A DNA stretch of 64,000 bases from an uncultured Clostridium sp. (lineage in GTDB: Bacteria > Bacillota_I > Bacilli_A > RF39 > UBA660): assembly GCA_947427095.1 (NCBI GenBank), contig CANEGO010000002.1, positions 99,810 through 163,809 of the forward strand. Reading direction: 5' to 3'. Below are positions 13,673 through 44,445 of the stretch, piece by piece (position 1 is the stretch's first letter; the number at the start of each line of letters is the position of its first letter). The notes below the pieces were generated by a model. It saw nothing but the letters and a program-made list of their open reading frames with translations, made no database searches and had not been told where the DNA came from. A program made the position numbers and the translations under genes.

Positions 13673-15022
13673 ATGAACATAGATAATCTATGGGATAATT
13701 TCCTAGAAAAAATTAAACCAAGAATATCTTCATTATCTTATGATACTTGGTTTAAGAATACAAAACTAGTATCACTAGATAATAATGTTGCAAAAATACT
13801 TGTAGATTCGCCACTTCAAAAGAAAAGTTTACAAGAAACCTGGTATCAAACGATATCCGATGTATTTAGTGAAATAACGAATACAAGTTTCGATTTTGAA
13901 TTTGTTTTTGAAGATGAGGTAAGCATAAATACGAATATTCCTGTGGAAAACATCGGAGTTCCTTTAAATACACCAGAAAAATCAAATCTAAATCCTAAAT
14001 ATACGTTTGATTCTTTTATAACAGGTGATAGTAATAAGTTTGCTTACATGGCTGCGGTTTCAGTTGCAGAAAATCCAGGTAAAACTTATAATCCATTATT
14101 TTTATATGGAAATAGTGGACTAGGTAAAACTCATTTAATGCATGCAATAGGAAACTTTATTATCGAAAATTCAAATAAAAAAGTATTATATGTAACAAGT
14201 GAACAATTTATATCAGATTTTCTTAACCTTAATAAAAAGGATGAAACTGGTACAAATTTTAACTACATAGATAGCTTTAAGAACAAATATCGTGGAGTAG
14301 ACGTACTAATAATTGATGATATTCAGTTTTTAGGAGGCGCTACACAAACACAGCAAGAGTTTTTTAACACTTTTAATAACTTGTATGACGATAATAAACA
14401 AATTATAATCTCATCTGACAGATCACCGGATGACTTAAAAAAATTAGAAGATAGATTAAGAACCAGATTTAATTGGGGTCTTAGTGTAAATATTTATCCA
14501 CCTGATTATGAAATGAGAGTTCAAATTCTTAGAAAAAAAATAATTGGACAAAACATGGATGGTACGATAAATGATGATGTTATTGCTTATATTGCTAATA
14601 ATTGTGAATCGGACGTAAGGCAACTAGAGGGTGCACTAACTAGGGTTATTGCTTATGCAACGATGTTTAATACAAGAGATATTAATTTAACGCTAGCGAT
14701 TGATGCACTAAAAGATTATTTATCAAAATCTTCGTTTACTAAAAATAATATTCAAAAAATTCAGCAAGTTGTATCAGAATATTATAATATAACGGTGGAA
14801 GATTTAAAATCCAAAAAAAGAAAGGCAAGTATAGCGTTTCCAAGGCAAGTAGCGATATATCTATGTAGAACAATGACGGATGAGTCTTTTCCAAAAATTG
14901 GAATACAATTCGGTGGAAGAGACCATTCAACTGTTATACATTCGGTTGATAAAATTGATAATGAAATAAAAACTAATCCTCAATTTAAAACAATAATAGA
15001 TGCATTAAAAAGTAAAATATAA
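13673..15022 (+). CDS. dnaA: Chromosomal replication initiator DnaA
   Basis: Full-length DnaA with the AAA+ Walker A GNSGLGKTHL and the C-terminal DNA-binding domain. A GGAGG RBS is present. Confidence 0.97.
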   Translation: MNIDNLWDNFLEKIKPRISSLSYDTWFKNTKLVSLDNNVAKILVDSPLQKKSLQETWYQTISDVFSEITNTSFDFEFVFEDEVSINTNIPVENIGVPLNTPEKSNLNPKYTFDSFITGDSNKFAYMAAVSVAENPGKTYNPLFLYGNSGLGKTHLMHAIGNFIIENSNKKVLYVTSEQFISDFLNLNKKDETGTNFNYIDSFKNKYRGVDVLIIDDIQFLGGATQTQQEFFNTFNNLYDDNKQIIISSDRSPDDLKKLEDRLRTRFNWGLSVNIYPPDYEMRVQILRKKIIGQNMDGTINDDVIAYIANNCESDVRQLEGALTRVIAYATMFNTRDINLTLAIDALKDYLSKSSFTKNNIQKIQQVVSEYYNITVEDLKSKKRKASIAFPRQVAIYLCRTMTDESFPKIGIQFGGRDHSTVIHSVDKIDNEIKTNPQFKTIIDALKSKI

Positions 15023-23623: not shown

Positions 23624-23671
23624 TAAGTATAATAATTCTTGATTATTTATTAATAATATAATAAAATATAA

Positions 23672-23750
23672 ATGCACAACGGAAATGCTAGAATCAGGTC
23701 AGGGCCGAGAGGCAGCAGCCTTAATAACCTCTTTTCGTGTGTGCTTTTTT
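23672..23750 (+). ncRNA. ffs: Signal recognition particle RNA, short 4.5S-type (ffs/scRNA)
   Basis: The domain IV core CAGGUCAGGGCCGAGAGGCAGCAGCC matches the conserved SRP RNA motif (E. coli CAGGUCAGGUCCGGAAGGAAGCAGCC). The 5' GCACA and 3' UGUGC ends can pair. A TATAAT -10 sits at 23657-62 and a U-run at the 3' end. Its position before dnaX mirrors B. subtilis scr. Confidence 0.6.
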
Positions 23751-23762
23751 AATTTAAAATAT

Positions 23763-35073: not shown

Positions 35074-35688
35074 GTGAAACATTTAAATAGAAAAATTAAG
35101 GGTGCATTATTAATCCTTGTGATTTGTTTAATAGCATTTATTGGTTTTTCAAAGGCCGGAATACTATTTTCGGCTGGTGGCGGTGATGTAATTACTGTTT
35201 CTACCACAAAAAAGACGTTTGATCCTAATAACTATGTTGCTTCGGCATCAATAGTTGCAACTACAACGAAACAAGAGACAACAACTATTACAACCACGAC
35301 AACGAAAGTAATTACAACTACTAAGGTGTTTACAACAGTGGAAACTACAACCGAAGCACCTAAAATAAGTTGGGCTGGAGAAGTTCTTTCTAAATCTAAA
35401 GGTGTTGTTATTGGACCTTCTGGAAAGGAATCTTATTATAACTTAAATATGACAAAAGTAATAAACACCATGAGACGTGCTGGATACTCTGAGGCAGAAT
35501 ATCCTTATTGGGTTCGTGAGGATGGTGTTAAGATGCTAGGCGATTATGTTATGGTTGCCGCAAATTATGATATACGTCCGCGAGGAACAATATTAGAAAG
35601 TTCACTTGGTTATGCCATAGTTTGTGACACTGGAGGATTTGCGAAAACAAATCCAACCCAAATTGATGTTGCTGTTACTTGGAGATAA
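35074..35688 (+). CDS. Secreted/membrane-anchored 3D-domain protein (YabE/YocH/MltA-like) with a poly-Thr linker (GTG start)
   Basis: Signal anchor, a T-rich spacer (TTTKQETTTITTTTTKVITTTKV), and a C-terminal 3D domain (..GYAIVCDTGGF...IDVAV). The position matches B. subtilis yabE. Confidence 0.7.
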   Translation: MKHLNRKIKGALLILVICLIAFIGFSKAGILFSAGGGDVITVSTTKKTFDPNNYVASASIVATTTKQETTTITTTTTKVITTTKVFTTVETTTEAPKISWAGEVLSKSKGVVIGPSGKESYYNLNMTKVINTMRRAGYSEAEYPYWVREDGVKMLGDYVMVAANYDIRPRGTILESSLGYAIVCDTGGFAKTNPTQIDVAVTWR

Positions 35689-35757: not shown

Positions 35758-36576
35758 ATGAGTGTTAAAGATATTTTAAATAAAAATGGATTTATTTTTA
35801 AGAAAAAGTTTGGTCAAAACTTTTTGCTTGATAATAATATTTTAAATAATATTGCTGATTTAGGTAATATAACAAAAGATACTCTTGTTATAGAGGTTGG
35901 CGTAGGAGCAGCTGCTTTAACTAAAAAATTAAGCCTTAAAGCAAAGCTAGTATTGGGTTATGAGATAGATATAAATTTGAAAAAACCGCTTGATGAAATA
36001 CTTACGGGCTATGAAAATGTTAATATAATTTATGATGACTTTTTGAATCGTGACGTAAAAAAAGATTTAAGTAAGTATGAATACAAAAACATTATAGTAG
36101 TCGCAAATCTTCCGTATTATATAACGACTCCAATAATAACTAAATTTATTGAAGAAAAAATAAACGTAGAAAAGATAGTAGTTATGGTGCAAAACGAGGT
36201 GGCTGACCGATTTTGTGCAAAAACTGGAACTAAATCATATAACTCTTTAACTATTTTTTTGAATTATTATTTTGATATTAAAAAGGCTTTTACCGTTTCA
36301 AGAAATGTATTTTATCCAAAACCAAACGTTGATTCTGCTGTTGTAGTTTTTACAAAAAAAGAGAAAAAATTAAAGTTAAATGATGAAGCCTATTTCTTTA
36401 GACTTGTAAAAGCAGCATTTACTCAAAAAAGAAAAACTTTGAAAAATAACTTATCAGACTACGACTTAGATAAAATTAATGAGGTATTAAAAATATCAGG
36501 TAAAGATATAACTAAAAGAGCAGAATGTATTACAATAGAAGAATTTGCTAAAATTTCAAACGAATTAACCAGATGA
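35758..36576 (+). CDS. rsmA: 16S rRNA (adenine1518/1519-N6)-dimethyltransferase RsmA/KsgA
   Basis: The ATG is preceded by AAGAGGAG; the track ORF starts upstream at a TTG. Motifs FGQNFL and ..VVANLPYYITTPII... Confidence 0.9.
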   Translation: MSVKDILNKNGFIFKKKFGQNFLLDNNILNNIADLGNITKDTLVIEVGVGAAALTKKLSLKAKLVLGYEIDINLKKPLDEILTGYENVNIIYDDFLNRDVKKDLSKYEYKNIIVVANLPYYITTPIITKFIEEKINVEKIVVMVQNEVADRFCAKTGTKSYNSLTIFLNYYFDIKKAFTVSRNVFYPKPNVDSAVVVFTKKEKKLKLNDEAYFFRLVKAAFTQKRKTLKNNLSDYDLDKINEVLKISGKDITKRAECITIEEFAKISNELTR

Positions 36577-37379: not shown

Positions 37380-37586
37380 ATGATAAACGAAATAAAATGT
37401 AAAATAAAAGCTCTTAAAGGAAAAAAAATTAGAGTTTATGTTGATGTAGGAAGAAATAAAAGTGAAACGTATGAAGGGATAGTTTTGAATACATATAATA
37501 ATATTTGGACGCTTAAGACTGATACTGATATAAAAAGTTTTGGTTATTCAGACGTTTTAATTAATACGGTTGTTATAAGTTCATGA
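37380..37586 (+). CDS. veg: Veg (biofilm/sporulation-associated small protein)
   Basis: 68 aa with IKCKIKALKGKKIRVYV..ETYEGIVLNTY..SFGYSDVLI, similar to B. subtilis Veg. Synteny after yabG. Confidence 0.7.
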   Translation: MINEIKCKIKALKGKKIRVYVDVGRNKSETYEGIVLNTYNNIWTLKTDTDIKSFGYSDVLINTVVISS

Positions 37587-37675
37587 TATATGAACTTTTT
37601 TATTTGTGTTTATTGATTTTTATCCCCATTTGTGGTTAAATTAAAATGTATAAACTAAAATGGGAGGACTATACT

Positions 37676-40600
37676 ATGAACATGGCAAAGTCGAATATTA
37701 AAAGCAGATTAAGTGATTGGTTTCTTATTCAGAGAATTAGAATAACTAATTTTATGAAGGAACATAAGTATGTTTCGGCGTTTATTGGTGTTTTTTTAAT
37801 GTCTTCCTTAATTGCTTTCATAGTTTACGCGGTTGATGCAAACAAGTATGATGGTCAGGTTTCAGTTACGGCTAAAGTTGAGCAAAAAAACGTATCTTCA
37901 AGCGAGGAAATTACACATATTAAAAGCTTTAGCAACATCATATATGATATATCATATGGATTATCAATATCAGACTTACCTGCCAACGAAACGGTTGTAA
38001 GGGAAAAAGTAATAATTGAAGCAGAATTTAACGAAGGTATTGATGCTGAATGGATATTCCAGGACGAGGATGCAACTTATGAATTGTCAGAAGATAAAAG
38101 AAAGTTAACGGTAACTATTTATCAAACTAAGGTTGGGGAACTTAACAGCAAGCAATTGTATTTAAAAGCAAAAAATATACAAAATGGAACAGTTATAAAT
38201 ACGAATATTAGAATAAAGGAATCTACCGCCGCAGATTTTACTGATTTAGGTCAAAAAAGTGTAGTAATAGAAAGTGAAAAAGTTGATTTAACTACTAAAA
38301 TAATATCTGGCACAGCTTATAAATCTTCTGACTATCAAGAAGGACGATTAGCTCCTTTTGGTATATTAGTTGGATTTGATAAAAGTAATCTTAAAACAGA
38401 GAATAAAGATAGTTTAGAGGGGCTTTATTTTGATCCTAATTTGAGTTTAATATTAGAAGCAACTCAGACTGTAAATGGAGTTAATTCTCAAATAGAATTA
38501 AAAAATGATAGTAATAAATTTTTTGGATTATATGATAAAGGATCTAATTTATTGCCATTGATGCCACATCATATAAATAATTATCAATATTATTCAGTAT
38601 ATAATTCCGGTAAGGTTACAAACTTAATCAAGTCAAAAAGTGGGGTTTCCGGTGTTGTTACTGAAAATAAAAATCCAGATTTATATTTAATAGGTGATAA
38701 AACCATGAATTTAGAGCTTGGAGAAAAATACGAAGAATATGGTGTGTCAACAACAAATGGTGGTTCAGCTATTTGCAAAACAAGCAGTTCTTCCTGCACC
38801 CGTGTTATAAAAGATAAAGATGGAAATGAAATCGCTGATAATGACGTTACCAAATCGGTTGGTAATTATATTGTTAGCTATGAATATAATACGGCAAGTG
38901 GTGTTACTAAGGTTAACAGAAATATCAAAGTTGCTGAAAAAACAACGGCTACTTTAAATGATGATGTGTATGAACTAAACGGTAATAAAATCATTACTTT
39001 AGTAAAAGGTACAGCTTATTCTGAAAGTGGAATAATAAAAAATGGTGCTAAATATTATAATTATGAAAGTATCATAACAAAAGATGGAGATGTTATTGAA
39101 AAAATAGACGCAACCATAGTTGGTACCTATGTAATAACTTATAAAATTACTGATGCTACTAGTCAGACGCCAGAAACTGGTGAAGAGACCCTGGCAGAGG
39201 AATCTACCATTAAAGAAGTTTCGTTAACAAGGACGGTTAAAGTAGTTGAAGGCTTGGAGTATTTGAAAGCACAAACGATTACTTCCAGCACTATTTATGC
39301 TCCGTCAGATGGTTCATTTACTAACCCTTTAATAAATCTTGATGGCAAGGATATAGAATGTACAAGCGATAGTGGATGTGAGGTTAAATATTATGATCCA
39401 ATTAGTAAAAAAGAAACAACTATTGATAAACAAAAAGCTGGAACATATAATGCTATATATAAAATAACCGATAAAAATGGATTTGAACTACAAACGGGAA
39501 ATGTTATTAATATTCAAACTAAATATGATTTTAATATAGAGGGAATAAAATCTGATGGAACTATTAATTTATATGGAGACGATTTTGTTGCATTAGGTTC
39601 TTATTTTGTAAATGCGGCATCTCCTAGAGCTCTTGAAGCAAGTGGTGATATTGCAGTTAATCTAAGAATTGGTGATGTAGTATCAGAAAATGTTATTAAT
39701 AAAGTTTATTCGGCAGGAACGAAAACTAATCATTTAACATTTAATACCGATACCTCTGGAATGTTAACAGAGTTGCCAAATGACACTTATTTAGCTTATG
39801 GTGAAGAAGTTATTTTAAGATCGGTATTTAATTATTCTAGTGATGGCGATGATAATATTGGAACTTTAACAACTAGGATTCCGATTGGTACGGCTGTTTC
39901 ATCAGCAAATAATCCGACCGCTCCGTTTACTATGGTTGAGTATAATAATAGTGTGGAGAATGGTGAACCCTATTACGTAAATGAGGAATTAAAAGATAAA
40001 GTAAAAGTTAGCTATTATGCATGTGAAATGGAAGAATCTAAGACAACCTGTATTAGTGAAACCGGAGCAACTTATGAAACTTTTGATACATTAAATGACG
40101 CTTTGAAGAAAAATGATAAATTAAGATTAGCTTATTTAACATACGTGGTTAATGACGTAAGACCTGGCTCTGAAATTGATTTTAGGATTAGATTAGTTGC
40201 TAACGTTGGAAATCATGATGGAGTACTTACAATGACATCAACATCTACATTTGATGAAAAGCAAGAAAATGGAACTAGTCAAAGTAAAAATATATCTGAT
40301 AATAGTACTATAAACGTTACCGCGTTTAAGGCAAGGACTAAAGTGTTTATTGGTAATAGTGAACAAGACGTCATAATAAATGCCGCTAATGTAAATAGCT
40401 CAACGTGGACTATTTATCCGACAATAAGTTTACCAGCAGAGTTAGTAAATACTAATATAGCGGCTATAGATGAACTTTCTAATATTACAATCGTTGTTAC
40501 TTTGCCTGATGGAATTAATTATTTATATAATGAAAATTATGATATTCCTTCAGTAAGTAATAATGGCAAAACCCTAACTTATGTTTTAAAGGGGAAACAC

Positions 40601-42250
40601 GTTAATGAGTGGATTGATCCGATAACGTTTGAGGCTAGTTATGATATAGATATTCCTTCTGGAACAAGAAAGGAAGTTAACGTTTTAATACAAGCAACGT
40701 CAACCAGTGGAATATCTGATGCATCTAGTAAAAACTTAAGAACAACAACGAGAGCAGTGACATATCAAAATAACGAAGTAATAACATATGCACAGTATAC
40801 TCCATATACAGCAATATCTAAAGAGACAAGTTTTAATGTAAGCACTAAATTATACAATAATGATAGTAAAGAAGTAACGCATTCAAATTTAGATATTGTA
40901 ACGCTACTTCCGTATAATGATGTAAGTAACGAAAAAAATAAATATACAGGCACATATACTATATCTAATTTACCTAAGGGAGCTTTATGTACAACTAGTA
41001 TTCCATCCGTAATAAGTGACTCTAAAAAACTTTTATCTGGTGATGAAATAACATGGGAAGATTGTTCTAAATATCAATCTGAGAACTATGTTGGCATTAC
41101 GGCCATTAGGGTTAATGGTATAAGTCTTGCTGCTAGAAAAACTTATGAACAAAGTATAACAATTAATCCAATAGGTAATAAAACAGATGATTCATATCAA
41201 ATTAATTCGTATTTAATCATGGATTCTGATGGTAAAAGGATTGTAAAAAATATTAAAGCTTTAAATATTGATGTTATTAGTAAAAGAATAACTGGTACGG
41301 TTTGGGAAGACTTTGACGCCAACGGTATTATGGATGCACAAGAAAAAAAGGTGTCAGGGGTTACTTTAAAATTATACAATGCGGAAACTGACGAACTTGT
41401 AAAAACTACTACTTCTGATGAAAAGGGTAAATATAGTTTATCTGATTTGATTCCGGGCACCTATTATGTAGTGGCAGAGTATAATACGGCAAAATATGGT
41501 TTATCACCATATCAAGTAACACTAGATAAATCTGTTAGTTCCTCGTTTAATGCAACTAAGGTTAACGAAGATAATATTGACTCTAAAAATAGTAATACAA
41601 AAGATGATATAGTATCTTCCGAATCGACAAAAGAAGATGTAGAATGCACTGGTGATGAGTGTACAGATCTTGACCCCTCTGATAAACTGGAAGAAACTCA
41701 GCCTGTTATTAGGACCGAAAATATAGAAATAAATAGTAATACTAGAATGGTTAGTAATGTTAATCTTGGTCTTGCACTTAGAAAGACATATTCTGTTAAA
41801 TTGACAAAGTATGTAACAAAGGCAATTACGACTAATAATCTTGGTGTATCAACAATAAAAGATTATGGTAATGTTTCTTTGGCAAAATTGGACGTAAAGG
41901 ATATAAATAATTTAGGTATTAAGGTTGTTTATACTTTAGAATTAGAAAATACTGGTTATTATCCTGGTTATATTTATTCTGTGAAGGATTATATTCCAGA
42001 TGGGATGAAGTTTAATGAAAATTATGAAGAAAATAAAGGTTGGGTAATGACTGAATATGGTTATTTGGAAAATAACACTTTATTTGATCAGTTGGTTGCT
42101 GGGGGAGAAAAGAAATATCTTACAGTCGCCTTTGATATCGTAAGAAAAGAAGCTGGCTCTTTTGTTAACTATGCGGCAGTGGATGATGAAGATTTACAAA
42201 TTTTAGTTGTTGCTGGAAATGAAGGAGAAGAAGGTGATAGTAATGAATAA
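37676..42250 (+). CDS. Giant N-terminally membrane-anchored surface protein (about 1525 aa) with a C-terminal CnaB/SdrD-B-type domain and a DUF11 domain
   Basis: Start set at the ATG 8 nt after GGGAGG; the track starts at 37646. A TM helix (VSAFIGVFLMSSLIAFIVYAV) follows a short cytoplasmic tail. ITGTVWEDFDANGIMDAQEKKVSGVTLKLYNAETDELVKTTTSDEKGKYSLSDLIPGTYYV is a classic CnaB/SdrD B repeat. The terminal VVYTLELENTGYYPGYIYSVKDYIPDGMKF is DUF11-like. There is no C-terminal sorting signal. Confidence 0.7.
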   Translation: MNMAKSNIKSRLSDWFLIQRIRITNFMKEHKYVSAFIGVFLMSSLIAFIVYAVDANKYDGQVSVTAKVEQKNVSSSEEITHIKSFSNIIYDISYGLSISDLPANETVVREKVIIEAEFNEGIDAEWIFQDEDATYELSEDKRKLTVTIYQTKVGELNSKQLYLKAKNIQNGTVINTNIRIKESTAADFTDLGQKSVVIESEKVDLTTKIISGTAYKSSDYQEGRLAPFGILVGFDKSNLKTENKDSLEGLYFDPNLSLILEATQTVNGVNSQIELKNDSNKFFGLYDKGSNLLPLMPHHINNYQYYSVYNSGKVTNLIKSKSGVSGVVTENKNPDLYLIGDKTMNLELGEKYEEYGVSTTNGGSAICKTSSSSCTRVIKDKDGNEIADNDVTKSVGNYIVSYEYNTASGVTKVNRNIKVAEKTTATLNDDVYELNGNKIITLVKGTAYSESGIIKNGAKYYNYESIITKDGDVIEKIDATIVGTYVITYKITDATSQTPETGEETLAEESTIKEVSLTRTVKVVEGLEYLKAQTITSSTIYAPSDGSFTNPLINLDGKDIECTSDSGCEVKYYDPISKKETTIDKQKAGTYNAIYKITDKNGFELQTGNVINIQTKYDFNIEGIKSDGTINLYGDDFVALGSYFVNAASPRALEASGDIAVNLRIGDVVSENVINKVYSAGTKTNHLTFNTDTSGMLTELPNDTYLAYGEEVILRSVFNYSSDGDDNIGTLTTRIPIGTAVSSANNPTAPFTMVEYNNSVENGEPYYVNEELKDKVKVSYYACEMEESKTTCISETGATYETFDTLNDALKKNDKLRLAYLTYVVNDVRPGSEIDFRIRLVANVGNHDGVLTMTSTSTFDEKQENGTSQSKNISDNSTINVTAFKARTKVFIGNSEQDVIINAANVNSSTWTIYPTISLPAELVNTNIAAIDELSNITIVVTLPDGINYLYNENYDIPSVSNNGKTLTYVLKGKHVNEWIDPITFEASYDIDIPSGTRKEVNVLIQATSTSGISDASSKNLRTTTRAVTYQNNEVITYAQYTPYTAISKETSFNVSTKLYNNDSKEVTHSNLDIVTLLPYNDVSNEKNKYTGTYTISNLPKGALCTTSIPSVISDSKKLLSGDEITWEDCSKYQSENYVGITAIRVNGISLAARKTYEQSITINPIGNKTDDSYQINSYLIMDSDGKRIVKNIKALNIDVISKRITGTVWEDFDANGIMDAQEKKVSGVTLKLYNAETDELVKTTTSDEKGKYSLSDLIPGTYYVVAEYNTAKYGLSPYQVTLDKSVSSSFNATKVNEDNIDSKNSNTKDDIVSSESTKEDVECTGDECTDLDPSDKLEETQPVIRTENIEINSNTRMVSNVNLGLALRKTYSVKLTKYVTKAITTNNLGVSTIKDYGNVSLAKLDVKDINNLGIKVVYTLELENTGYYPGYIYSVKDYIPDGMKFNENYEENKGWVMTEYGYLENNTLFDQLVAGGEKKYLTVAFDIVRKEAGSFVNYAAVDDEDLQILVVAGNEGEEGDSNE

Positions 42251-44372
42251 AAAAGTTAAAAATATTATATTAGTTATTCTTCTTTCCATTACTACCTTCT
42301 TTAGCTTTAACAACATTTTATTTGCTAAAACAGGGCAAATACACCCTCATAGTAATACGAATTATAAAAATGCAGTATATCGAATGAATGGTGTTAATAA
42401 AGATAAGAACATAGGTTGGGTTGGAATTTATAATATAAATGGGCAACATGCTTATTGTATAGAATTAGGAACACCTCTATCTCCTGGGTATGATCCTAAT
42501 AATAACGTTGATTTTAACGATTATTCATATGGTTTTTTCAAGAATTTAAGTGCCTCAGAACGAGCTGCTAGAAGTACTAGAATCGCTTATATATTAACGT
42601 TTGCTGAAAATATTGGTACTGTTCCGGCAGAGAGTGCCATGAATAAAACTCAAGCGTTAAGAATTTATGCTGCTCAAGGTTTAATTTGGGAAACTATGAC
42701 TGGGGAGAGAACTTCTTTTAATAATTTGTGGCCAGAAAATCATCAGGGAACGGCTTGTAGTTTTTACGATGTTGTTCATAGCAGAAATGGTTGTAATAAG
42801 GGTAATGATATGAGCGTGATCTCCCAAGAGTATGATCGTATTGTAAAAGCAATCCAATCTACGTTTTTAGATAGTAATCCGGGGGAATCTGGTAAAACTT
42901 TTAAACCAGGTGGTAGTGAAAACAAAGTGGCTCTTTCTTGGGATGGTTCAAAATATACTTTAAGAATTAATGATTATAATTTTTCGTATTGGGAAGTAAT
43001 CAAAACCGATGGTCTTCAAGTAGAAAAAGGTTCAAATTATATTACTATTTCAAGTAAAAATCCAATTGATGAAAATGCTGCAAAGCAGGTTGGTATTCAG
43101 ATTATTAATAAAAATAATAGTTCTAATATCGCGAAGGCATATTATCATGATAGTTTGCAAGATCTTACTACTATTGTAGGTACTACATTACAAAGATATA
43201 TTAAGGTATACACACCAAAATATCAGTTAAAAATCACTAAAAAAGCTTCTTTAGATGGAAAGGTTTTAAGTGGAGCAAAATTCAATATTTGTTCAAATAG
43301 TTCCTGTACAAAAATATTAGGTACGGTAACAACGGATAAAAATGGAACTGCAACATTTCAAAGTATCCCATCACCAGGTACTTATTATGTAAAGGAAATA
43401 GTTGCTCCGCCGGGGTATGAACTTGATTCAACACCACGTGCCGTTACTGTTTCATCTTCTAGTATCGCGGGATCATCAAGTTATGGGGTGATAACTTTAA
43501 CTGATGCGAATAAAGTATTTAACTTAACAAAAAAGACAGTTGATGAAAATGGAAACGTTATTGATTTAGATGATGGATGTGGAACAGATAATTATACTGG
43601 TCCAGAATTTGAGATTAAAGAAAACGGAAGTAGTCTTTATTTTAAAGAAATAAAACCAGGTGAATATGATGTTTCAAGTAAGGATGCTGATGGTGCAACA
43701 ACAAAGCTTAGAACTTGCAAAGGAAAATTCAAAGTTTATACTTTGCCAAAGTGTAATTACACCATATCGGAAACTAAAGCTCCAGAAGGACTTACTTTGC
43801 CATCCGAACCAACAAAAGCAATTAACGTTTGTGGTTCTGGGAAAAACGTATCATTTACCAATGGATTTGCAGGTTTAGAATTTCAAAAAAAAGATGAGGA
43901 TGGTAACTTTGTAGAAGGAGGAAAATTTTCTCTCCAAAGAAGGGTAAATAATGTTTATCGTGATATTTTACTAAAACAAGTAGAAGATGGTAGTTATGTT
44001 TACGATGCTAATCTAAAAGAAGAAGACGAAGGAGCTACTTATATAATTCTTACTAATAAAGGTATAGCACGCATTTCAAAATTAGCACCTGGTGAATACA
44101 GGGTGGTAGAAAAAGAGGCTCCAGAAGGATTTGAACTTATTCAAGATAAGGATTCCAAATCTTTAGTTACCATAAAAGATAGTGATAAAGAAGGATATTA
44201 TTTAGTAGAAATGATTGACCAAAAGGTTAGGAAAAATGGAAGTAAATCCTCCGCTGAACTTGTAGTTACGATCACAACTGGTAGAAAGGTTCCAAATTAT
44301 ATACTTATTATTTCTGCTTTAGTTATTATGCTTGTAATAGCTATATTGATAAGAAAAAAAATAAAAAAATAG
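42243..44372 (+). CDS. Secreted adhesin/pilin-like protein (about 709 aa) with a possible thioester-type N-domain, two SpaA-like prealbumin-fold domains, and a C-terminal TM helix with a KR-tail cell-wall-anchor-like signal
   Basis: The ATG overlaps the upstream stop (ATGAATAA), with a GAAGGAG RBS. Signal peptide MNKKVKNIILVILLSITTFFSFNNILFA. YCIELGTP and AAQGLIWE resemble the Cys and TQxA(I/V)W Gln motifs of thioester domains. GTYYVKEIVAPPGYELDSTPRAVTV and KLAPGEYRVVEKEAPEGFELIQ are SpaA-like. The C-terminus is ..VVTITTGRKVPNYILIISALVIMLVIAILIRKKIKK. Confidence 0.65.
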   Translation: MNKKVKNIILVILLSITTFFSFNNILFAKTGQIHPHSNTNYKNAVYRMNGVNKDKNIGWVGIYNINGQHAYCIELGTPLSPGYDPNNNVDFNDYSYGFFKNLSASERAARSTRIAYILTFAENIGTVPAESAMNKTQALRIYAAQGLIWETMTGERTSFNNLWPENHQGTACSFYDVVHSRNGCNKGNDMSVISQEYDRIVKAIQSTFLDSNPGESGKTFKPGGSENKVALSWDGSKYTLRINDYNFSYWEVIKTDGLQVEKGSNYITISSKNPIDENAAKQVGIQIINKNNSSNIAKAYYHDSLQDLTTIVGTTLQRYIKVYTPKYQLKITKKASLDGKVLSGAKFNICSNSSCTKILGTVTTDKNGTATFQSIPSPGTYYVKEIVAPPGYELDSTPRAVTVSSSSIAGSSSYGVITLTDANKVFNLTKKTVDENGNVIDLDDGCGTDNYTGPEFEIKENGSSLYFKEIKPGEYDVSSKDADGATTKLRTCKGKFKVYTLPKCNYTISETKAPEGLTLPSEPTKAINVCGSGKNVSFTNGFAGLEFQKKDEDGNFVEGGKFSLQRRVNNVYRDILLKQVEDGSYVYDANLKEEDEGATYIILTNKGIARISKLAPGEYRVVEKEAPEGFELIQDKDSKSLVTIKDSDKEGYYLVEMIDQKVRKNGSKSSAELVVTITTGRKVPNYILIISALVIMLVIAILIRKKIKK

Positions 44373-44393
44373 CAATAGGTTGCTATTTTTTTT
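44363..44393 (+). terminator. Terminator after the adhesin pair
   Basis: AATAGCAA-TAGG-TTGCTATT hairpin plus T8; it begins at the stop codon. Confidence 0.65.
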
Positions 44394-44445
44394 AATAATG
44401 TGGTAAAATTATATTGTTTAATAATCAACTAAAAGGAGTGTTCAT

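Follow-up and report, generated by a model that had tools for sequence, protein, structure and literature searches.

A translationally coupled gene pair between veg and spoVG of uncultured gut Bacilli, predicted to encode a class II thioester adhesin and a long fibrillar partner

The DNA analysed here (the window) is the whole stretch of 64,000 nucleotides from contig CANEGO010000002.1 of an uncultured Clostridium sp. assembly (GCA_947427095.1). Between veg and spoVG it carries two overlapping genes, open reading frame 1 (ORF1) and ORF2, whose products are predicted to be surface proteins: ORF2 an adhesin with a class II thioester domain (TED), ORF1 a longer, fibrillar partner. Residues are counted from the ATG at position 37676 for ORF1 and from the ATG at 42243 for ORF2. 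Percent identities of protein segments are means across the homologues, and residue conservation in ORF2 refers to 60 sequences.

Organization and conservation of the gene pair

The two genes and their expression signals are arranged as follows (window positions):

37577..37603, + strand, veg terminator: hairpin AAGUUCAUG/UAUGAACUU and U-run (-6.8 kcal/mol), separating veg from the pair
37613..37641, + strand, putative sigma-A-type promoter of the pair: -35 TTGATT (37613-37618), 17-nt spacer, extended -10 TGgTTAAAT (37633-37641)
37676..42250, + strand, ORF1: 1524 amino acids (aa), stop codon 42248-42250; predicted fibrillar all-beta surface protein
42225..42250, + strand, translational-coupling junction: Shine-Dalgarno GAAGGTGAT in the ORF1 tail, ahead of the ORF2 ATG (42243), and 8-nt overlap ATGAATAA of the ORF1 stop with the ORF2 start; kept in most related loci
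42243..44372, + strand, ORF2: 709 aa, stop codon 44370-44372; predicted TIE-class adhesin with a class II TED
44363..44397, + strand, intrinsic terminator of the two-gene unit: hairpin (-10.8 kcal/mol) and U-run, with the ORF2 stop codon within the 5' arm

ORF1 most likely starts at ATG 37676, which has GGGAGG (37662-37667) 8 nt upstream and from which the homologues align. The segment coding for the acidic ORF1 tail also carries the ribosome-binding site of ORF2, and comparable overlaps (AATGAGTAA or TAATG) combined with a Shine-Dalgarno sequence encoded in the ORF1 tail are found in most related loci, the distant ones included. Fusion of the two products by frameshifting was considered and dropped because the A-run lies 3' of the ORF1 stop codon and is not conserved. 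The region upstream from ORF1 looks like a vegetative sigma-A promoter by its fit to the consensus; its -35 (TTGATT) and extended -10 (TGnTTAAAT) elements are kept in register in 13 species-level loci with a drifting spacer. The terminator downstream from ORF2 escaped a consensus scanner because its stem is AT-rich. A preliminary description of this DNA, made from the sequence alone, had reported two same-strand genes between veg and spoVG sharing one terminator, with the ORF2 ATG overlapping the ORF1 stop codon; the reading frames, the hairpin at 44363-44397 and the 8-nt overlap bear this out. Its term "giant" suits the 1524-aa ORF1 and not the 709-aa ORF2.

The pair is syntenic in ~16 species-level genomes, where it follows yabG-veg and precedes spoVG-yabP-yabQ-divIC (spoVG or yabP being the next gene). 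Neighbouring genes code, according to Pfam, for YabG, VEG, SpoVG, YabP, YabQ and DivIC, with DnaA encoded ~24 kb upstream. A scan of one genome per species gave 19 related loci, all in metagenome-assembled genomes (MAGs). The MAGs derive from human, rabbit and other gut samples and are labelled as uncultured Bacilli or Mollicutes, with two labelled Muribaculaceae, probably by mis-binning. Flanking proteins are mostly 60-95% identical between syntenic loci, versus 30-62% for ORF1 and ORF2, and the G+C content of the pair is 0.30-0.34 versus 0.23-0.34 in the flanking 15 kb. In this lineage the pair belongs to the core genome at a fixed place and is neither an insertion nor an island. The preliminary description gave its position correctly; presenting it as a replacement of sspF-ispE-purR is misleading, as this uses B. 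subtilis as the yardstick for what is a fixed core locus with its own conserved promoter. The homologues of both proteins come without exception from MAGs or metagenomes, and ~40 of those of ORF1 are full- or near-full-length.

Domain structure of ORF2 and ORF1

ORF2 is composed of four successive segments:

42243..42326, + strand, residues 1-28: signal peptide with predicted cleavage between LFA and K
42327..43217, + strand, residues ~29-325: predicted thioester domain with Cys72 (42456-42458), Gln145 (42675-42677), Trp149 (42687-42689) and Gln306 (43158-43160)
43218..44222, + strand: stalk of three CnaB/SpaA isopeptide domains with triads K333/E385/N427, K430/E510/N540 and K549/E623/D659
44253..44369, + strand: tripartite C-terminal signal, AELVVTITTGR-KVPNY (TITTG codons 44268-44282), transmembrane helix 687-703 and tail RKKIKK

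The signal peptide assignment is based on a helix at residues 3-21 of the structure model, on a dip at residues 23-28 in its predicted local distance difference test score (pLDDT) and on Ala28, present in 59 of the 60 homologues. In the model the part that follows adopts a TED fold that includes the beta-sandwich insert of class II; all ~290 residues of a class II domain are there, and the top Foldseek match of ORF2 is BaTIE of B. anthracis (E 5.6e-26). The sequence YCIE fits the [YFL]C-hydrophobic-hydrophilic motif, with Y71 and C72 invariant (60/60). LQDL, carrying Q306 (equally invariant in 60 sequences), fits the weak hydrophobic-Q-hydrophilic-hydrophobic motif. The family profile aligns Q306 with Gln266 of BaTIE and K333 with its Lys297, a residue numbering that rests on the construct offset given in PMC6194298. 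A TED bond joins the Cys of [YFL]CΦζ to a Gln on a downstream strand (PMC6194298), and the predicted thioester of ORF2 is Cys72-Gln306. AQGLIW represents the accessory TQxxΦW motif of helix alpha-2; neither Q145 nor W149 varies, and of the 60 sequences 46 begin the motif with A and 8 with T. Structures and mutagenesis placed the Gln and Trp of this motif next to the bond and found them dispensable for its formation (PMC6194298).

The presence of a thioester domain, proposed in the preliminary description, is upheld by the TED fold, the match to BaTIE and the invariant motif residues. The pairing proposed there, of the Cys with the AQGLIW Gln at ~72 aa, picked the wrong Gln; with Gln306 as partner the "unusually short spacing" vanishes as a mis-assignment, and the distance becomes 234 residues, a normal one for class II (195 in BaTIE and 204 in EfmTIE86). 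The numbers Cys84 and Gln156 had been counted from an upstream TTG start, the true start giving Cys72 and Gln145. The SpaA-like domains are confirmed by Pfam, which finds three SpaA/CnaB-type domains in the stalk (PF17802, E 2.4e-34). Each has a triad of a first-strand Lys, a catalytic Glu and a last-strand Asn or Asp that is conserved in the 60-sequence alignment. The protein has a variable head on a conserved base, identity rising from 39% in the TED to 63-73% in the stalk and 91% in the signal motif. Two conclusions are highly probable: ORF2 is a TIE-class adhesin with a class II TED, and the pair forms a conserved, coupled and vegetatively expressed unit. Thioester adhesins bind their targets covalently; ORF2 would presumably form the thioester and adhere in this way.

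The recognizable parts of ORF1 are:

37676..37834, + strand, residues 1-53: conserved cytoplasmic helix DWFxIQRIRxTNFxKEHKY and transmembrane helix
38972..39169, + strand: bacterial surface Ig-like domain (PF16403, E 6.7e-9 with the whole protein and 1.4e-11 with a fragment)
41291..41593, + strand, residues 1206-1306: SdrD_B (CnaB-type) domain (PF17210, E 1.5e-17, 64.3 bits vs a gathering threshold of 29.7)
41789..42190, + strand, residues ~1372-1505: C-terminal DUF11 (CLIPPER)-like domain (PF01345, E 8e-5, 23.3 bits vs a cut-off of 24.6)

Residues 1-53 have ten invariant positions (D14, I18, R22, N25, F26, E29, H30, K31, Y32 and A52) and a mean identity of 64%, versus 36% for residues 54-70 just past the membrane; helices are predicted at 4-29 and 31-53 in the AlphaFold2 (AF2) model. 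The invariant Ala52 lies in a V-x-A context, so cleavage by signal peptidase between VYA and VD is possible. The N-terminus may be an anchor or a long signal peptide, both readings fitting the sequence. The AF2 model of residues 1-1200 (pLDDT 85.7) is from residue 60 onwards a string of beta-sandwich domains, which include the PF16403 domain, one of three matched stretches in residues 326-708. Foldseek returned for this model generic multi-Ig matches only (PrgB Ig domains, integrins, alpha-2-macroglobulins), from which no specific function follows. For the SdrD_B domain, a family profile matches S. aureus SdrD structures (E 1e-19).

The DUF11-like domain is the best conserved part of ORF1 (80% mean identity); its K1375 or K1378, D1438 and N1498, invariant or nearly so, are candidates for an isopeptide triad. 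CLIPPER isopeptide domains have such a Lys/Asp/Asn pattern (PMC12617251), and the end of ORF1 resembles the fibrillar adhesin stalks that combine DUF11/CLIPPER and SdrD_B domains. It differs from them by an insertion of ~20 residues after the first strand and by its single, terminal position, the CLIPPER domains being tandem and mid-stalk. The idea that it could be a split "catcher" of an ORF2 strand was rejected because the candidate internal triad is complete. ORF1 ends in an acidic tail and its C-terminus has no sorting signal. The preliminary description had ORF1 as N-terminally anchored, with an SdrD_B repeat, a terminal DUF11 domain and no C-terminal signal. All of this stands, with export as an alternative to anchoring, save that DUF11 falls just under the Pfam threshold.

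Distant relatives have pairs of like architecture elsewhere in the genome, at sites unrelated to this one (locus L020 with protein P0068 and L025 with P0259): an upstream protein that ends in SdrD_B, DUF11 and an acidic tail overlaps the start of an adhesin bearing the C-terminal signal. Two giants, P0264 and P0329, combine an ORF1-type DUF11 domain near the N-terminus (BLASTP E 4e-14) with the C-terminal signal. We infer that ORF1 is an obligate partner of ORF2, as a scaffold or co-adhesin.

The giants P0264 (L023:5140-16230), P0296, P0325 and P0329 are 3300-4800 aa long, with an N-terminal transmembrane segment, Asn/Gly-rich repeats and an AEL..IQTGQ end; the ORF1-type SdrD_B/DUF11 module lies in their first ~410 residues. 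An ORF2 paralogue stands alone in one MAG, without an adjacent ORF1 (L013). This MAG, CAKOWI01, has two ORF2 paralogues (L013:9989-12238 and, at the syntenic site, L014:9428-11749) that differ in their N-terminal halves and are identical in the last 55 residues, pointing to gene conversion or to an anchor module swapped recently.

The C-terminal signal of ORF2 and its possible processing

ORF2 ends with the layout of a cell-wall sorting signal: T679-G680 is followed by RKVPNY, a 17-residue hydrophobic helix and RKKIKK. The layout with TITTG in place of LPxTG was already recognized in the preliminary description. The segment SAELVVTI[T/I/N]TGR[K]xxNY is 91% identical across the family and is the most conserved stretch of ORF2; the C-terminal helix is 51% and the basic tail 84% identical. 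I677, T679, G680, R681, N685 and Y686 are invariant in the 60 homologues; L693 and L697 within the helix are also invariant. It had been envisaged that the helix could be a plain transmembrane anchor, conserved in homologues without the TTG residues. With I677, T679, G680 and R681 invariant this objection falls. The monomer model leaves residues 665-684 disordered.

A profile of the last 50 residues, run exhaustively against 1.84 billion cluster representatives (E <= 0.001), found 147 clusters with proteins of up to 4798 aa; a word-indexed search with the C-terminal profile gave just seven short fragments. The matches sit at or within ~10 residues of the C-terminus, barring a few internal-repeat matches (e.g., P0231, P0232). 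A recognizable signal, A-E-L-[IV]-[VI]-x-I-x-T-G-[QR]-x-[VI]-[IV]-[NKR]-Y plus hydrophobic helix plus basic tail, is present in 131 of the 147 clusters, in all of them C-terminal. IQTGQ is the commonest core, and the Tyr at the membrane edge is found in 126 of these 131. TED motifs are present in 41 of the 131 carriers, the others being SpaA-rich proteins of 1700-2000 aa or repeat-rich giants of 3300-4800 aa. On ORF2 the signal gave no match to any Pfam or NCBIfam model, nor did NCBIfam match it on four other carriers. A literature search for IQTG, VQTG, ITTG and IxTG motifs returned nothing relevant.

Sortases were sought with a TLxTC regular expression and with phmmer, using the sortase of the related locus L018 as query, in the 64-kb window and ~540 kb of related loci. 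None is encoded in the window, as had been described, nor in the flanks of L001-L017 and L019-L026; L018 alone was positive. The gene order there is an ORF1-like gene, an ORF2-like gene (TIITG), a second TED-SpaA protein ending in LPNTG, the sortase and, on the opposite strand, a transposase-like gene.

L018:7979-9992 and L018:10524-11714, region of the LPNTG TED-SpaA protein, the sortase and the transposase-like gene

The L018 sortase (177 aa, active site LITC, PF04203 E 4e-16) has a weak class C/D affinity and shows that the clade can encode such enzymes. A membrane protein of 214-220 aa (L024:6632-7294; L026:5460-6104) was rejected as a sortase because it has no Cys or His. This membrane-anchored protein, which has no Pfam or NCBIfam match, is encoded between an adhesin with an IQTGQ signal and an SdrD_B protein of ~1550 aa on two unrelated contigs. 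The proteins flanking the giant P0264 were likewise rejected, not being sortases.

The reading that we favour, with a probability of roughly 0.55, is that of a self-contained TED-adhesin unit with ORF1 as partner and a signal processed by a sortase-type enzyme. The pair would be a constitutively expressed two-gene unit in the core genome of an uncultured low-G+C gut Bacilli clade. ORF2 would be exported by Sec and present its class II TED on a stalk of three isopeptide-locked CnaB domains; the Cys72-Gln306 thioester would form autocatalytically and react with an amine on a host or other target, giving a covalent link. ORF1, made together with ORF2 by means of translational coupling, would be a fibre of ~1470 aa of beta-sandwich domains, held or guided by its N-terminal cytoplasmic helix and transmembrane segment. 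ORF2 would be retained by the tripartite signal (AEL[IV][VI]xIxTG[RQ]..Y, transmembrane helix, basic tail), which many large surface proteins of related organisms have in common. A housekeeping transpeptidase of the sortase type, with its gene at another place in the genome, would cut this signal at Thr679-Gly680. For this last step, with an unlinked enzyme of proline-independent specificity, we see about even odds. It is favoured because of the sorting-signal layout, of the invariant TG after a variable residue and of the fact that class II TIE proteins are sortase substrates (the known ones being sortase-anchored; PMC8092201).

Several observations weigh against the favoured reading. The pentapeptide T-I-[TIN]-T-G has a Pro at position 2 in no family member and so departs from LPXTG, and the motif is conserved over ~20 residues on both sides of TG, unlike LPXTG signals. 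Neither PF00746 (Gram_pos_anchor) nor TIGR01167 (LPXTG) matches ORF2 at E <= 0.1, and no NCBIfam sorting-signal model matches four other carriers. Many carriers also have a seemingly uncleavable N-terminal transmembrane segment. The loci are devoid of an adjoining sortase except for L018, where the enzyme adjoins a separate LPNTG protein and the ORF2-like gene keeps TIITG, so that two distinct signals coexist. SrtB does not cleave, in vitro, the proline-free NVQTG motif of CbpA from C. difficile (PMC4155245). As for the thioester domain, the Pfam TED profile (PF08341) gives ORF2 18.8 bits, below its cut-off of 22 (relatives reach 24.9 and 25.0 bits, and several homologues carry a precomputed PF08341 match), and the proximity of Cys72 and Gln306 is deduced from homology. 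The physical contact between ORF1 and ORF2 is presumed.

A possible but less probable alternative is a permanent membrane anchor. The uncleaved juxtamembrane strand AELVVTIxTGR..NY and the helix of ORF2 would dock non-covalently, without any sortase, onto ORF1 (its N-terminal helix or a membrane-proximal domain) or onto another membrane partner. Such docking would fit the ~25 loci without an adjoining sortase, the sole one lying beside the canonical LPNTG protein, as well as the conservation of the proline-free motif from -8 to +7, membrane-edge Tyr included. It would also fit the 64% identity of the cytoplasmic and transmembrane segments of ORF1 together with the invariant L693 and L697 of ORF2, and the disorder of the strand-like segment when ORF2 is modelled alone. 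The uncut CbpA motif and the giant carriers that combine an N-terminal transmembrane segment with the C-terminal signal point the same way. However, a Thr-Gly pair that never changes, preceded by a residue that does, is what marks the scissile site of a sortase; the ORF2 helix, at 51% identity, varies much like one that is discarded; and housekeeping sortases are normally unlinked to their substrates. We also propose, tentatively, that the signal (AEL[IV][VI]xIxTG[RQ]x[VI][IV][NKR]Y, helix and basic tail) represents an undescribed sorting or anchoring system of the giant adhesins of this clade. It may depend on a proline-independent sortase or operate independently of sortases, the juxtamembrane strand then pairing with ORF1-type partners in a two-protein membrane-anchored covalent adhesin.

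A minimal two-subunit pilus, in which ORF2 would be the thioester tip and ORF1 the membrane-anchored shaft, a sortase joining Thr679 of the former to a lysine of the latter, is unlikely. The thioester tip adhesin Cpa of S. pyogenes is joined by a sortase to the shaft pilin FctA in such a manner, and the Cpa/FctA/FctB loci resemble the pair in having a thioester adhesin gene beside a long Ig-like stalk gene and in their non-canonical motifs (VPPTG, QVPTG). Translational coupling would tie the synthesis of one protein to that of the other, perhaps in a fixed ratio, and ORF1 has no sorting signal of its own yet has very conserved terminal domains with invariant lysines. The signal differs moreover from the LPNTG of the same clade, as pilin signals differ from housekeeping ones. 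The S. pyogenes loci, in contrast, have dedicated sortases, a signal on every subunit and motifs that keep the proline; the pair is unlinked to a sortase, ORF1 is devoid of a signal and the ORF2 motif of proline. The locus thus lacks the dedicated class C sortase and the signal on each subunit expected of a pilus locus, and a class C sortase is found in none of the loci, though pilus loci normally encode one. The invariant DUF11 lysines are accounted for by the candidate internal isopeptide triad, an ORF2 paralogue stands without an adjoining ORF1 (L013), and we know of no precedent for a shaft anchored by an N-terminal transmembrane segment.

Still less probable is a component of the spore surface (coat or exosporium). 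The neighbours yabG, spoVG, yabP and yabQ belong to sporulation-associated families, among which the locus is fixed in many genomes, but the conserved promoter resembles the vegetative sigma-A extended -10 type and not a sporulation-sigma one, the pair is its own terminator-bounded unit, the Sec signal and membrane-anchor features suit the cell surface, and related pairs occur in unrelated neighbourhoods (L020, L025). Least probable of all is a compact thioester domain with Cys72 bonded to the AQGLIW Gln 73 residues away: both residues are invariant and this Gln adjoins the bond in known TEDs, but the TQxxΦW Gln and Trp are unneeded for a bond whose partner Gln lies on a downstream strand (PMC6194298), Q306 aligns with Gln266 of BaTIE and the entire class II domain is there.

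Relation to known systems and other features of the window

The closest known protein is BaTIE (BasC, BA5258; PDB 6FWV), which shares with ORF2 the succession of signal peptide, class II TED, three CnaB domains and C-terminal signal with helix and basic tail. Its Cys is at nearly the same position (71 vs 72), and the bond Gln and the first isopeptide Lys align. The two proteins are ~18% identical. They differ at the C-terminus, where BaTIE ends in LPXTG and is sortase-anchored and ORF2 ends in AELVVTITTGR..NY, and in organization, BaTIE being a single gene and ORF2 being translationally coupled to a 1524-aa partner. TIEpLS20 (p34 of the B. subtilis plasmid pLS20) also has a class II TED (Cys68-Gln256) and three CnaB domains, and its attachment to the surface is independent of known sortases (PMC8092201). 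It lacks the C-terminal transmembrane helix and sorting-like signal that are strongly conserved in ORF2, and it belongs to a conjugation operon and promotes mating, whereas ORF2 is chromosomal and part of the core genome. CbpA of C. difficile (CD3145) is a collagen-binding adhesin with a proline-free xVQTG before a transmembrane helix and basic tail (PMC4155245, PMC5569036). Its flank (VGQNVQTGDQSN) lacks the AEL and Tyr elements of the ORF2 signal, and homology of the two signals was rejected as the likeness is limited to ~five residues. The adhesin itself adds a further member to an established class, from which the system departs by its C-terminal signal and its presumed obligate ORF1 partner. 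The signal is probably a new anchoring signal and may represent a new sorting class.

A fixed, fast-evolving core gene near the replication origin across the clade is likely to be a main colonization factor of these uncultured human, rabbit and other gut Bacilli. For expression of the domain, the predicted Cys72-Gln306 pair is the corrected residue assignment. The factor that recognizes the signal, once identified, would broaden what is known of how Gram-positive surface proteins are displayed and might also explain orphan cases such as CbpA of C. difficile.

Other observations concern the surroundings of the pair. The replication origin probably lies within the window, given dnaA at 13673-15022 and a strand switch near 12.3-13.6 kb. 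The small bacterial signal recognition particle RNA (23666-23757) and the leader of ribosomal protein L10 (49671-49801) were identified in the window; no rRNA or tRNA was found in its 64 kb. In two related loci (L014 and L017) no spoVG match is present between the ORF2 homologue and yabP, and spoVG was apparently lost or moved there. Some genomes have extra DNA between ksgA and yabG, ~3.6 kb long in L002 (L002:754-4424) and also present in L005 and L008. A 204-aa protein encoded at 35074-35688 of the window, with an N-terminal transmembrane segment and a Thr-rich linker (TTTKQETTTITTTTTKVITTTK...), is kept in all related loci; its Pfam match is a sub-threshold, mucin-like one. Translational coupling has a further instance in this run of genes, where the first 4 nt of yabG are also the last 4 nt of ksgA/rsmA (36573-36576).

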